A stretch of 34,205 nucleotides of DNA from a virus (taxonomy: Duplodnaviria > Heunggongvirae > Uroviricota > Caudoviricetes): the IMG/VR virus record IMGVR_UViG_2579778753_000004. One strand, 5' to 3'. The translations under genes were made by a program, and so were the position numbers. Below are positions 23,530-34,205 of this stretch, piece after piece. Within the stretch, counting starts at the first letter, position 1. Each line of letters begins with the position of its first letter. The notes under the pieces were generated by a model. It was not told the origin of the DNA and did no database searches. It saw nothing but the letters and a program-made list of their open reading frames with translations.

Positions 23530-23632
23530 ATCAACCCACAGGTATGCACTGTGAGCCGACCAGGGTTCAGTCAGTCTCGCGAGACCAGACTAGCCTGCCA
23601 TATTTTCATTGATTGCAAAAGGCTTACGGATA

Positions 23633-24403
23633 ATGAAAGAACAATCTTTACCCATCGTCCCATGGATTGGCGGTAAACGTCGTCTGGCGAAGCATATTTT
23701 ACCATTGTTTCCGGCCCATACCTGCTATGTGGAGCCGTTCTGCGGGGCAGCTGCGCTCTATTTCCTAAAGACTCCCAGCAAGACCGAAGTCATTAACGAT
23801 ATCAACGGGGAACTGGTGAACCTCTATCGGGTGGTCAAGCATCATCTGGAAGAATTTATTCGCCAGTTCAAATGGGCGCTGGTCAGCCGTCAGATTTACA
23901 AATGGTTGCAGGATACGCCGGAAGAAACGCTCACCGACATTCAGCGGGCGGCCCGGTTCTACTACCTGCAGAAACAGGCATTTGGCGGCAAGGTCGCCGA
24001 TCACACATTCGGTACCTCTACAACCAGTGCGCCGCGCTTCAATTTGCTGCGTATTGAGGAAGAACTGTCGATGGCACACCTGCGCCTGTCGAGAACGCTG
24101 ATAGAGCATCTGGACTGGCACCAGTGCATAGAGCGATATGATCGCCCGCATACGCTGTTCTACTGTGACCCACCGTACTGGGGAACGGAAGGCTATGGTG
24201 TGGAGTTCGGGCTGGAAAACTATGATCACATGGCAGATTTAGCGCGAAGGATCAAAGGGAAGATGATTATATCAGTGAACGATATCCCGGAAATGCGGCA
24301 GGTATTCAACGGTCTGAACATGCAGTCGGTTGATATCAGCTACAACCTTAAGGTAACAGGCAAACCCAGCCCGAAGAAAGAGCTGGTAATTTGTAATTTT
24401 TGA
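23633..24403 (+). CDS. DNA N6-adenine methyltransferase, Dam-like (orphan)
   Basis: N-terminal PWIGGKRRL and catalytic DPPY (YCDPPYWGTEGYG) motifs; start taken at ATG 23633 (the ORF track starts at a TTG at 23609). Confidence 0.8.
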   Translation: MKEQSLPIVPWIGGKRRLAKHILPLFPAHTCYVEPFCGAAALYFLKTPSKTEVINDINGELVNLYRVVKHHLEEFIRQFKWALVSRQIYKWLQDTPEETLTDIQRAARFYYLQKQAFGGKVADHTFGTSTTSAPRFNLLRIEEELSMAHLRLSRTLIEHLDWHQCIERYDRPHTLFYCDPPYWGTEGYGVEFGLENYDHMADLARRIKGKMIISVNDIPEMRQVFNGLNMQSVDISYNLKVTGKPSPKKELVICNF

Positions 24404-24450: not shown

Positions 24451-24984
24451 TTAATCCTGCCTTGGACAAGTCCAATAATCATTATCTGGCTCTGGTGAAT
24501 AAGCTTTCAAACAACCTGCTCGCGGGGTCTTACCATCATCTGTCATAGGAACTTTTTCCTTATCAAGTTTCACGGTCAGGTCTCCACCAGGAACATCCGT
24601 TTTATCGAAAAAAACAGCCTGACATGCTGATTTAGATATTTTCACTTCGTGGGCATTATTTGATATGAACAAATAACAATTATGACCAGAGGCTATGTAG
24701 TCACTTGGAATATTATTTTCGTCTTTAATATGAAACTGCACCGTTGTCACCGGGCGTTCGCTATCCTCGGATACTTCGACTTTTTCAAAACTGTCCGCGT
24801 ACTTATCCAGGCCGGGGAGTTGTTGGCGAATAAACGGTAATTCGCGATTTACAACCGGATTATCTGTTTCAACGCTAAAAACCGCGTGCTCCTTAGCTGT
24901 GGTGGACGTATCAGCAGGATCGGTATTATCTCCACACCCAGATAAAACAAATATCAACGGTAAAAATAATTTGCGCATAGTCAT
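24451..24984 (-). CDS. Secreted lipoprotein, low-GC accessory gene downstream of the repressor
   Basis: MTMRKLFLPLIFVLSGC lipobox LSGC; a hand count over 100 nt gave about 44% GC versus visibly GC-richer flanks; same strand as, and 36 bp downstream of, the repressor gene; RBS GAGGT. Confidence 0.7.
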   Translation of the reverse strand: MTMRKLFLPLIFVLSGCGDNTDPADTSTTAKEHAVFSVETDNPVVNRELPFIRQQLPGLDKYADSFEKVEVSEDSERPVTTVQFHIKDENNIPSDYIASGHNCYLFISNNAHEVKISKSACQAVFFDKTDVPGGDLTVKLDKEKVPMTDDGKTPRAGCLKAYSPEPDNDYWTCPRQD

Positions 24985-25019
24985 GTCCTTATACCTCTAA
25001 TGTTCTTAATAGGAACAGA

Positions 25020-25430
25020 TTAACCCGTATTTTTTAATCTTTCGAACGCTGCGGACAGCTCCTTAAGCTGTTTTTCCATATCAATCATTCGCTGTTTTTC
25101 CTCAGCGCCTCGCAGCAACTCTTTTCGCACCTCTGGCTCCAGTTGGTTGAGCAGCTCCAATAACTTCAGATCAGACTGGTTGAAATGCTGCTCCTGATTA
25201 GCTGGCTGTGCTTTCTCTACCCCAACAGCTTCCCCTTTACCAGTAAGTAGCCAATCTATTGATATGTTCAAATGGGTGCTTAGCGCAACAAGAGCCTCTG
25301 CATTAGGTTCTCTCTCTCCACGCAGATAGTTTTGAAGTGAGCGATATGGAATTTTTGACAAGTCTGACAATGCCTTAATTGTCAGACCCTTAGCATCCAT
25401 CGCTTCGCGCAATCTCTCTTTTATACTCAT
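25020..25430 (-). CDS. Prophage repressor (XRE/Cro-CI type HTH, C-terminal coiled coil)
   Basis: Start at ATG 25430 (MSIKERLREAMDAKGLTIKALSDLSKIPYRSLQNYLRGE...); divergent from the early operon. Confidence 0.75.
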   Translation of the reverse strand: MSIKERLREAMDAKGLTIKALSDLSKIPYRSLQNYLRGEREPNAEALVALSTHLNISIDWLLTGKGEAVGVEKAQPANQEQHFNQSDLKLLELLNQLEPEVRKELLRGAEEKQRMIDMEKQLKELSAAFERLKNTG

Positions 25431-25446
25431 TTGAACATATCTCAAT

Positions 25447-25474
25447 TTGACATACCCGTTTGGGTGCGTACAAT
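25447..25474 (+). promoter_or_regulatory. Early promoter (Pe-like) with overlapping operator repeats
   Basis: -35 TTGACA (25447-25452), 16-bp spacer, -10 TACAAT (25469-25474); inverted TTGGGT/ACCCAA pair brackets the -10 and a further ACCCAA lies downstream. Confidence 0.6.
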
Positions 25475-25518
25475 AGACCCAATAGAGTACATCATAACCC
25501 AACAGGAACACGGTGCAT

Positions 25519-25743
25519 ATGAACAAACAACAAGTTCGGGCACGGCTGGTTGAAAGAGGCAGTAGCTTGCGCCAGTTCGCGCTTAACGCGGGCTATGAGC
25601 CACGAACAGTCACCCAGGCTGTCAGCCGCTGGGCAGGCAAAAGCGAACTTCCACGCGGTCGTTTGACTTATCGGATTTTGCGAGACCTTTCGGTCGCAAT
25701 AGGCAAAGAAGTTACCCCCGGCATCCTCAAGGAGGCGTCATGA
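25519..25743 (+). CDS. ner: Ner-like DNA-binding protein
   Basis: 75 aa ...LRQFALNAGYEPRTVTQAVSRWAG...; first gene of the early operon, RBS AGGAA. Confidence 0.7.
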   Translation: MNKQQVRARLVERGSSLRQFALNAGYEPRTVTQAVSRWAGKSELPRGRLTYRILRDLSVAIGKEVTPGILKEAS

Positions 25744-26045
25744 GTAAACCAAATACATCAAGCTCAGGTACCCGTATTTTGCGTGTCCTTAAGGCTTTAC
25801 GCGGTCACGCTCTGAACGGTGTTTCTAACGGCGAGCTGGCGTCAGCTCTGGGCGAGTCCCCGGCGAATATCAATCGGGCGCTCAATACCCTTATCGAAGA
25901 AGGACTGGCCCTGAAACTGGATAACGGGCGTTTTGCCCCAGGAGTCCAGCTCTTACAAATCGCCATGGCGCACAGTACCGAAATGGCGCGGGCGCAGGAT
26001 CGTATCAATGAAATTAACCAGCGTGTTATGGCTGGTAGTCGCTAA
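25740..26045 (+). CDS. Small winged-helix DNA-binding protein
   Basis: 101 aa, HTH-like ILRVLKALRGHALNGVSNGELASALGESPANINRALNTLIEEGLA; ATGA overlap with ner; RBS AAGGAGG. Confidence 0.55.
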   Translation: MSKPNTSSSGTRILRVLKALRGHALNGVSNGELASALGESPANINRALNTLIEEGLALKLDNGRFAPGVQLLQIAMAHSTEMARAQDRINEINQRVMAGSR

Positions 26046-26054
26046 GGAGTTGAA

Positions 26055-26963
26055 ATGGGACGCACAAAATCACAACCAGTTGAACTAGTGGAAGATGCAC
26101 CGCTGACCGATGGTCTCAGTGTCAGTCTTAATGCTATGTCCGAACATCGCCTCGAAATCATGCAGCAGTTTGGTGATGGCCTGCCGTATGAACGTGATCG
26201 TATTGTCCATGAAACACGTTTTTATATGGCTCAGAGTGCTGAAGCCATGCTGGAGGCGGGTAAACGACTGGTAATTCTCAAAGAAAATGAACCACATGGT
26301 GACTTCATCGACATCGTTGAGTCTCAGTTGTCCCTATCCAAACGTACCGCGCAGGTGATGATGCAAGCATCCCTCAAATATTTGTCTCCCAAGCTTGAAC
26401 CAAAAGCGCAAGCGCTTGCGCTTTTGGGTAAAACAAAGCTGTTTGAGTTGATGACGGAAGATGACGAAGACCTCGTCGAATTAGCCGATGGCGGCACGAT
26501 TGCTGGTATGAGCCTCGATGATATTGATCGCATGACAAGCCGCGAACTGAAAGCGGCCCTACGCGAAGCGCGTGAAACCAACGCAGCACAACAGCGCGTG
26601 CTTGCCGACAAAAACGAAAAAATCGACTCGCTCTCCACAAAACTGGAGAAGAAATCCCGTATCCAACCGCCCAAGCCTGACGAAGAGGTGAAGAAGCTGC
26701 GTGCGGAAGTTACAGCGTTAGCGGTTGAGGCGGAATCTGCCATCGCCGTTCGACTGTCCAGCGCCTTTGAGACCCTGTGCGCATACTGTGCTGAAAATAT
26801 GATTGATACCCCCAGAGACTTTATGGCCGGTCTGGTCTGCCAGTTGGAAAGCACCGCGCGTAGCCTGCGCTCCACATTTGACCTGCCGGACGAGCCGACA
26901 GGCAACGCCGCCCCTTCATGGCTGACTGACCCGACGCCAGAGATTAACGGGCAGGAGGCATAA
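26055..26963 (+). CDS. Conserved early protein of unknown function (DUF3102-like, from memory)
   Basis: 302 aa, coiled-coil middle region, RBS AAGGAG; lies between Ner and transposase. Confidence 0.5.
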   Translation: MGRTKSQPVELVEDAPLTDGLSVSLNAMSEHRLEIMQQFGDGLPYERDRIVHETRFYMAQSAEAMLEAGKRLVILKENEPHGDFIDIVESQLSLSKRTAQVMMQASLKYLSPKLEPKAQALALLGKTKLFELMTEDDEDLVELADGGTIAGMSLDDIDRMTSRELKAALREARETNAAQQRVLADKNEKIDSLSTKLEKKSRIQPPKPDEEVKKLRAEVTALAVEAESAIAVRLSSAFETLCAYCAENMIDTPRDFMAGLVCQLESTARSLRSTFDLPDEPTGNAAPSWLTDPTPEINGQEA

Positions 26964-33514: not shown

Positions 33515-34205
33515 GCTCACGGCCCTGATAGATAACGCCTTTTGAATCGCAAACCACGATGTTATGTTTTTGCAGACCCAGCGCTACCAGCAGGTTCATA
33601 CAGGCGATTGCTGCGGCACCCGCGCCGGAAACCACCATCCGCACGTCGGAGATGTTTTTCTCCACCACGCGCAAGCCGTTGAGGATGGCGGCAGTGCTGA
33701 TGATTGCCGTGCCGTGCTGATCGTCGTGGAATACCGGAATATTCATCCGCTCGCGCAGTTTCTGTTCAATATAGAAACATTCTGGCGCTTTAATGTCTTC
33801 GAGGTTGATTCCGCCGAAGGTCGGTTCGAGCGCAGCGACAACTTCAATAAATTTGTCCGGGTCGAGTTCATCAACTTCAATGTCAAATACATCAATCCCG
33901 GCGAATTTCTTAAACAGAACGCCCTTGCCTTCCATCACCGGTTTGCCAGCCAGCGCGCCAATGTTGCCTAACCCCAGCACCGCCGTACCGTTAGAGATCA
34001 CCGCCACCAGGTTACCGCGCGCGGTATATTTGTAGGCTTTTAACGGGTCTTTTTCGATTTCAAGACAAGGTGCGGCAACGCCTGGTGAGTAGGCCAGCGC
34101 CAGATCGCGCTGCGTTGCCAGAGGCTTGGTTGGAGAAACCTGGATTTTCCCTGGAACTGGAAATTCATGGAAATCAAGTGCACTTTGTTTTAACTGGTCA
34201 TCCAT
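33483..34205 (-). pseudogene. maeB: maeB 5' fragment (NADP-dependent malic enzyme) interrupted by the prophage
   Basis: The translation matches the N-terminal ~229 residues of E. coli MaeB as I recall them ([53 protein letters not shown]...GVIYQGRE), then diverges into [10 protein letters not shown]-stop read from phage DNA. Host-derived DNA is 33515-34205. Confidence 0.8.

Follow-up and report, generated by a model that had tools for sequence, protein, structure and literature searches.

We examined the regulatory region of a prophage carried on a 34,205-nucleotide stretch of DNA (IMG/VR virus record IMGVR_UViG_2579778753_000004; Caudoviricetes), hereafter the window. Positions 25431–25518 of the window make up exactly the 88-bp gap between the ATG of an immunity repressor gene on the minus strand (25430) and the ATG of the next gene on the plus strand (25519), which opens a rightward early operon. 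The gap very likely controls immunity (the choice between lysis and lysogeny) in a BcepMu/B3-like prophage of E. coli, an early promoter (Pe) being overlapped there by dyad operators for an XRE-family repressor. The case for this reading comes chiefly from related loci, in which the dyads change together with the DNA-binding domain of the repressor.

The repressor gene (25020–25430, minus strand), adjacent to and divergent from the early operon, encodes 136 residues comprising an N-terminal XRE/HTH_3 helix-turn-helix (HTH) domain (approximately residues 1–65) and a C-terminal helical domain. Pfam matches were obtained to HTH_3 (3e-12), Phage_CI_repr (2e-6) and also HTH_19, the protein matches PHROG transcriptional repressor families, and its sequence relatives in the PDB include ImmR, DdrO and P22 C2. 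The C-terminal 60 residues form a conserved helical segment that is common to the different HTH types described below and is probably a coiled coil. A Pfam search detected no S24 peptidase domain in the repressor, and for this reason induction of the prophage probably does not proceed by RecA-driven self-cleavage. Close homologues occur in Pantoea, Enterobacter, Citrobacter, Salmonella, Serratia, Pectobacterium and other genera, and among characterized phages the repressor shows distant homology to B3 ORF18 (pairwise E 1e-5, 26% identity) and is similar to BcepMu gp17 over a 36-residue stretch only (33%). A temperature-sensitive mutation in RepC, the HTH repressor of the B3-like phage Fc02, induces the prophage, so that RepC is the immunity repressor by genetic evidence (PMC9936078); RepC is treated here as the corresponding repressor, with homology measured against B3 ORF18. 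The repressor family is also modular, at least three unrelated-looking N-terminal HTH types being carried on one conserved C-terminal helical domain (LLELLNQLDPEVR..AEEKQR..ME).

The rightward operon encodes, in order, a small HTH protein, an IclR-like HTH protein, a DUF3102 protein, an rve transposase (TnpA) and an AAA+ transposition protein (TnpB). The 589-residue transposase is 69% identical to that of phiE255, 68% to that of BcepMu and 57% to those of B3 and Fc02, and the early gene order, with the repressor on the left and the transposition genes on the right, matches that of the BcepMu/B3-group phages. The homologous transposase and AAA+ protein, together with this conserved order, identify the window by homology as a transposable prophage of the BcepMu/B3-like group and not a close relative of Mu.

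The first early gene (25519–25743, plus strand), lying directly after Pe, encodes a 74-residue protein that belongs to phrog_8503 (5e-35), a family of unknown function. As a gene for a small DNA-binding protein, first in the early operon and divergent from the repressor, it occupies the position of ner, and its counterparts in the relatives are placed alike. It had been labelled ner in the first-pass annotation of this DNA, a name that holds by position only: the Pfam HTH_35 match scored 16.7 bits against a gathering cut-off of 25, weak HTH_35 matches were seen in only two of 13 family members, and no Ner/Nlp match was found in the PDB with either the single sequence or a 13-member profile. 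The protein aligns weakly with B3 ORF17 and BcepMu gp16, and we refer to it as Ner-like. In two of the related loci, L003 (2450–2758) and L007 (E. coli AR_0067 and HSP60), RefSeq annotates nothing between the repressor gene and that for the IclR-like protein, and the same DNA encodes an intact 74-residue open reading frame (ORF) near-identical to that of the window.

For comparison, we assembled 22 related loci (designated by L numbers) in three ways, namely from E. coli genomes, from one genome per species by repressor-homologue alignment, and by exact-protein look-ups. They represent three repressor HTH types, A, B and C, the window being of type A.

Pe comprises a −35 hexamer TTGACA (25447–25452) and a −10 hexamer TACAAT (25469–25474) on the plus strand with a 16-nt spacer, in agreement with the first-pass annotation, which had described a near-consensus early promoter between the divergent repressor and ner genes. 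This sigma-70-type promoter matches the consensus at 11 of 12 positions and is the sole plus-strand site with 8 or more matches in a scan of 25400–26300. It is conserved across 13 type A loci: TTGAC is kept in 12 of the 13 as aligned, the exception (meta_P0082) looking like an alignment shift, and the −10 is conserved as TAnnnT in the alignment of relatives. TTGAC is also kept in BcepMu, phiE255 and B3. The scan and the relatives favour its role as the early promoter, and from the spacing its transcription start is predicted at A25481 or A25482.

The operator unit that emerges from comparison of the 22 loci is a 14-bp dyad, nACyC-N4-GrGTn, with a 12-bp core ACyC-N4-GrGT. The pattern ACYCNNNNGRGT has exactly two matches in the 34-kb window, at 25454–25465 and 25477–25488, and both fall on Pe. 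The first predicted operator, O1 (25453–25466; TACCCGTTTGGGTG, ACCC-N4-GGGT), fills the Pe spacer from −28 to −15; its right half is the TTGGGT hexamer pointed out in the first-pass annotation, in which the left half ACCC (within ACCCGT, 25454–25459) was overlooked. Relatives with the same HTH carry spacer dyads at the same place (ACTCGTTTGAGT, ACCCATTCGAGT and GCCCGTTTGAGT, that of the window being ACCCGTTTGGGT). The second predicted operator, O2 (25476–25489; GACCCAATAGAGTA, ACCC-N4-GAGT), lies across the predicted Pe start from −5 to +9, its core ACCCAATAGAGT coinciding with +1, its left half with the first of two ACCCAA hexamers and its right half with GAGT at 25485–25488. The centres of O1 and O2 are 23 bp apart. 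Twelve type A loci were scanned for dyads, for which the background is about 0.1 match per 95 nt; ACCC-N4-GAGT was found exactly at the O2 position in 10 of the 12 and within one mismatch in an eleventh. At least two dyads thus overlap the promoter, one in its spacer and one at its start site.

The principal evidence that these dyads are repressor operators is that they differ between loci in step with the repressor HTH. Type A repressors are 46–99% identical to that of the window and have the recognition helix PYRSLQNYLRGEREP, or PYRTLQNYLLGEREP in L016–L019, and most type A loci keep the −35, the −10, the spacer dyad and the second dyad, 2 bases past the −10, at fixed offsets. In type B loci (helix SYSSLQNWAGGHREP), the palindrome TTCCC-N4-GGGAA is present at the same three offsets, which are those of O1, O2 and a third site, O3, considered below. 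In type C loci, whose repressors (WP_016238309 among them) have a CI_repr-type HTH (NRQTLASWRKRDSVPYS), the palindrome at these positions is TTATTCA-N3-TGAATAA, and the position of the O2 left half holds TTATTCA. When all 22 loci were scanned with the dyads of types A, B and C, none had the dyad of another type at any of the three offsets. Three HTH types are thus paired with three palindrome types at the same offsets over 22 loci. These regularities, like the promoter itself, are observed directly in the aligned loci.

The palindromes track the N-terminal HTH of the repressor, and neither the Ner-like protein nor the remainder of the phage, since types A and C differ in palindrome yet have the repressor C-terminal domain in common. 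A near-identical Ner-like protein accompanies a different HTH and a different palindrome when the window is compared with AR_0067, L020 and L022, and again when L092 is compared with L021. More distantly, BcepMu, phiE255, B3 and PhiKM each have a palindrome of their own in the same spacer position. This co-variation is comparative and not biochemical evidence, and it is the main support for O1 and O2 as predicted repressor operators; the proposal in the first-pass annotation that repressor operators overlap the early promoter is supported by it.

The comparison also decides how the hexamers TTGGGT and ACCCAA, from which the first-pass annotation had started, should be read. TTGGGT is at 25460–25465, within the Pe spacer, and ACCCAA is at 25477–25482, 2 nt past the −10, and again at 25497–25502. 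In the original layout, TTGGGT-N11-ACCCAA formed a single inverted-repeat operator around the −10 and the second ACCCAA, placed 15 bp downstream, a further operator; this copy is present, at a gap of 14 nt rather than 15 (20 nt from start to start). The two bracketing hexamers are indeed there and perfectly complementary, and an imperfect inverted repeat of 18 nt (72% complementarity) has its centre at the −10. As an operator arrangement, however, the layout is very unlikely. Each hexamer has a nearer dyad partner only 4 nt off (ACCC at 25454 for TTGGGT, GAGT at 25485 for ACCCAA), so that the supposed pair combines half-sites of two different operators, the right one of O1 and the left one of O2. 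In relatives the O1 right half changes from GGGT to GAGT and the O2 ACCC is invariant, so the hexamers are no longer complementary, and at these positions the palindromes of types B and C are compact and perfect, 14–17 bp in length, rather than long-spacer repeats. The downstream ACCCAA, moreover, is retained in five of five type C relatives with a different repressor HTH and lost in the type A loci L015, L095, L097 and L098.

Hexamer counts by themselves carried less information. ACCCAA/TTGGGT occurs nine times on both strands of the 34,205 bp, which is rarer than the 15.9 copies expected, and three of the nine copies fall within 43 bp (post-hoc Poisson P ~1e-7). A fairer test asks how often any hexamer occurs three or more times, both strands counted, in an 88-bp segment, and the answer is 3.7% of real segments of this sequence and 1.2% of shuffles of the region; because 3.7% of real segments triplicate some hexamer, the clustering alone is only suggestive, and the real support for the operators is the comparison with relatives. 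That same frequency could be cited for the view that the motifs cluster by chance in an AT-rich promoter region, as could the fact that the dyad consensus was derived after the data had been seen. Chance is nevertheless scarcely credible as an explanation of dyad positions that are fixed in 22 loci, of dyad sequences that switch in step with the repressor HTH type, and of the 23-bp distance between the only two matches to ACYCNNNNGRGT in the window.

The candidate third operator, O3 (25424–25437; TACTCATTTGAACA), which the first-pass annotation had not noted, spans the repressor start codon (CAT, 25428–25430), with its centre 29 bp from that of O1. Its left half ACTC fits the consensus and its right half GAAC departs from GrGT at two positions, and for this reason O3 is only a weak candidate in the window. 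At the same position, exact or near-exact cognate dyads are found in the type A loci L093 (Serratia) and L098 (metagenome), perfect or near-perfect TCCC-N4-GGGA in the type B loci L023, L025, L029 and L036, and TTATTCATTTTGAATAA in the type C locus L021. The first codons of the repressor vary by type (MS/MG/MN-I, MGIG or MNK) in step with the operator half-site.

Three observations concern the sequences at and around these sites. Type A and type C immunity modules are joined at 25482–25486, between the two halves of O2, and the join falls in the same place in two diverged lineages (comparisons with L003, L020, L022, L021 and L026). The right half of O2, in the form TGAGTAC, partly fits both the A and the C operator types. 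A direct repeat is present at the starts of the two divergent genes (CATTTGAACA, 25428–25448, and CATATGAACA, 25516–25536; 71% identity over 21 nt), and GTGCATATGAAC, where the Ner-like gene begins, bears a loose resemblance to the O3 dyad; this may be chance.

Downstream of O2 lies an early-leader block, GTACATCATAACCCAACAGGAACAC (25487–25511, plus strand), which holds the third hexamer (ACCCAA, 25497–25502) and a likely Shine-Dalgarno sequence (AGGA, 25504–25507). The block is kept in heteroimmune relatives from E. coli and Serratia and, more loosely, from Pseudomonas. Within it, ACCCAA is present in all five type C relatives examined, and several type A loci have instead GCTCAG, ACGGAG or ACGAAT; since its presence does not follow the repressor type, this hexamer is unlikely to be a specific repressor operator, and that element of the first-pass annotation is not upheld. 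No Rfam match was obtained in 25000–26100 at E ≤ 1, the predicted fold of the early-leader RNA was not significant (z = −0.98), and inspection of the leader by eye gave no match to an IHF-type consensus. The start of the Ner-like gene is ambiguous with respect to the Shine-Dalgarno sequence: the ATG at 25519 is 11 nt past AGGA and a GTG at 25513 is 5 nt past it, and a Pectobacterium relative has an ATG at the 5-nt spacing.

The behaviour of the leader block raises the question of whether the repeated motifs are sites for the Ner-like protein rather than for the repressor. The Ner protein of Mu has its own binding site close to Pe and Pc, separate from the operators of the repressor. The leader block, but only the leader block, would suit such a role, being conserved with the Ner-like family independently of repressor type, and a gapped direct repeat, GTACA-ATAGACCCAA and GTACATCATAACCCAA, occurs with a separation of 19–20 bp. 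At O1 and O2, loci with nearly the same Ner-like protein have different palindromes when their repressor HTH differs, and the 74-residue protein is not demonstrably a member of the Ner family, which makes a Ner-like target a distinctly improbable explanation of the motifs as a whole. The block itself may still be a binding site for the Ner-like protein.

Alternatively, the leader block supplies a candidate leftward repressor promoter, Pc (25491–25519, minus strand), which would face Pe and start near 25484. It consists of a −35 TATGCA (25519–25514), a 17-nt spacer and a −10 TATGAT (25496–25491), and at 8 of 12 matches is the sole minus-strand site to reach that score in 25400–26300. Of the 22 related loci, about 18 have TAnnAT as the minus-strand −10 and three have TATTGT; L028 lacks the usual conserved block, and TAGAAT was assigned there by position. 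A back-to-back promoter giving a leaderless repressor transcript, in the manner of lambda PRM, was considered and rejected, the only −10-like hexamer upstream of the repressor ATG (TATGTT, 25439–25434) lying 3 nt from that start codon. In Fc02, RNA-seq showed that pE fires at the ner-like gene, and the short intergenic stretch was reported to contain overlapping predicted pE and pC2 promoters (PMC9936078); in the window Pe is clear and TATGCA-17-TATGAT, with its 8 of 12 matches, is the only leftward candidate. A low-threshold scan of 25400–26300 did not find an equivalent of the distal Fc02 promoter pC1, and the window lacks the gene 10/olg region that holds pC1 in that phage.

Several points weigh against the interpretation of the gap as a repressor-controlled switch. 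Related loci are not independent of one another, and the conservation within type A could in part reflect shared ancestry; the argument from the switches between types is the stronger one. The O1 half-sites vary among relatives (ACCC, ACTC, GCCC, GTTC and GCTC), so that the consensus is loose, and L097 has a different-looking palindrome at the O1 position. O3 has its two mismatches in the window, and coding constraint acts on its left half. The −35 of Pc is poor, the promoter reaching 8 of 12 overall, and overlaps a start codon, and in Fc02 the lysogenic repressor transcript comes mostly from the distal promoter (PMC9936078).

The mechanism that we propose is as follows. Pe, as a strong sigma-70 promoter, would drive the rightward early operon through the transposase and the transposition ATPase. 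The 136-residue repressor would bind the 14-bp dyads, probably as a dimer held together by the C-terminal helical domain, and its occupancy of O1 in the Pe spacer and of O2 over the start site would shut Pe. The weaker O3, which spans the start codon of the repressor gene, may contribute cooperative binding or autoregulation and, if Pc is real, O2 would cover both start sites. Binding, repression, the two start sites and Pc are predictions drawn from the arrangement of these elements.

A region of this kind in Mu, with operators O1–O3 and the promoters Pe and Pc, also serves as a transposition enhancer (the internal activation sequence, IAS), and the first-pass annotation had named it as the equivalent region. 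The Mu enhancer works because domain Iα of MuA is homologous to the DNA-binding domain of the repressor. The present locus resembles that of Mu in having a repressor divergent from an early operon whose first gene encodes a small DNA-binding protein and which also contains the transposase genes, in having multiple operators and, if Pc is real, in having early and repressor promoters that face each other. An operator cluster upstream of the transposase operon of a transposable phage offers a functional analogy only, however, and a Mu-like enhancer bound by the transposase is highly improbable here. The repressor is an XRE/HTH_3 protein and not a homologue of Mu c; the transposase has no repressor-like domain, matching in Pfam only rve and, weakly, HTH_8, with no match to a Mu-type N-terminal domain; and a BLASTP comparison of repressor with transposase gave nothing better than E 5.6. 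Since the two proteins lack similarity, the enhancer logic of Mu is rejected. In addition, the operators are swapped freely among heteroimmune relatives whose transposase genes have the same RefSeq annotation and position, and some 8 kb separate the region from the closer end of the prophage, compared with about 1 kb in Mu; at 88 bp the region is also much more compact. The Mu framing holds for function only, without homology-level support, and an enhancer function is unsupported.

Closer parallels are found in the lambdoid right operator (OR), as represented by lambda OR1–3 with PR/PRM and by the P22 OR bound by C2. Both have a divergent XRE/Cro-CI-type repressor, P22 C2 being among the PDB relatives of the present one, and operators that overlap the lytic promoter, here two clear dyads and a third candidate, and in both heteroimmune relatives differ in operator sequence and in repressor HTH. 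The 23-bp distance between the O1 and O2 centres compares with 23–24 bp between operator centres in lambda. The differences are that the dyads of the window are shorter (14 bp), that one site lies over the repressor start codon, that the candidate repressor promoter faces Pe rather than standing back to back with it, and that the first early product does not obviously share the operators as Cro does. Unlike the self-cleaving lambda CI, P22 C2 and LexA-like proteins, the repressor has no S24 domain. Facing promoters for the lytic and lysogenic states are instead a feature of the switches of coliphages 186 (pR/pL) and P2 (Pe/Pc), and if Pc is real the window would resemble them in having facing promoters with overlapping starts. 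Promoter interference could then be part of the switch, provided that the TATGAT −10 is real, although the predicted starts are only about 3 nt apart and the 186 and P2 repressors are unrelated to that of the window.

Within its own group, the locus shares with B3 and Fc02 (Beetrevirus) and with BcepMu (Bcepmuvirus) a short intergenic region in which TTGACA is directly followed by a spacer palindrome, and it differs from them in operator sequence and in the low similarity of its repressor (26% to B3 ORF18) next to a transposase 57–69% identical. It is a conventional phage immunity region, one that works like a lambdoid OR within a B3/BcepMu layout and would not surprise phage biologists. No operator mapping for BcepMu, B3 or the BcepMu-like prophages of E. 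coli was found in the searchable literature, and the three-type operator map is a useful addition in that respect. It provides a concrete map of a BcepMu-like immunity switch, with Pe, O1, O2, a possible O3 and a candidate Pc; the three pairings of HTH and palindrome predict which prophages are heteroimmune, and the repressor/operator pairs could serve as orthogonal parts. It also corrects the tempting transfer of Mu biology (c, ner and the enhancer) to phages that have the lifestyle of Mu and other regulatory proteins.

We tentatively consider a further, somewhat doubtful possibility, in which the switch would consist of interchangeable halves that meet at a fixed point within O2. On the left, such a half would comprise the N-terminal HTH of the repressor, O3, O1 and the left half of O2, and would exist in at least three specificities; one operator would be embedded in the first codons of the repressor, and these N-terminal codons would co-evolve with the operator type. 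The right half would comprise the 25-bp leader block, with its ACCCAA, and the Ner-like gene, independent of the repressor and common to heteroimmune phages from E. coli to Pseudomonas, and could act as an operator for the Ner-like protein or as the −10 of the facing repressor promoter.

The remaining observations concern the prophage and its distribution. Host maeB sequence, present in essentially every E. coli genome, begins at 33515 and occupies 33515–34205. This places the early end of the prophage at about 33514 and the whole element within maeB, as expected for integration by transposition; this is the end that lies about 8 kb to the right of the promoter, the other being outside the window and more than 25 kb away. 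A search of 5,426 complete E. coli genomes found most of the control region in at least 39; lysogens include E. coli CFSAN051542 and G5, and the region is 100% identical to GenBank records of Klebsiella phage KP12 clone KP12_2 and of Escherichia phage Phi06_2974 B. The KP12_2 record (L001, OM835952.1) gives Klebsiella as the host and Vequintavirinae as the classification, although over the 1.2 kb tested its sequence is 100% identical to that of an E. coli BcepMu-like prophage; it probably represents a co-induced or contaminating prophage whose taxonomy was mis-assigned.

Between the lysis cassette and the immunity region there is a gene for a D12-class DNA adenine methyltransferase (23609–24403, plus strand), on the strand opposite to the late genes. 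Just downstream of the repressor, a 177-residue ORF (24451–24984, minus strand) without a Pfam match begins with MTMRKLFLPLIFVLSGC, which resembles a lipoprotein signal peptide. The same slot is occupied in FAM21845-type relatives by a gene for a nucleoid-associated protein (named NA37 in a different relative), and it looks like a position for morons or accessory cargo.

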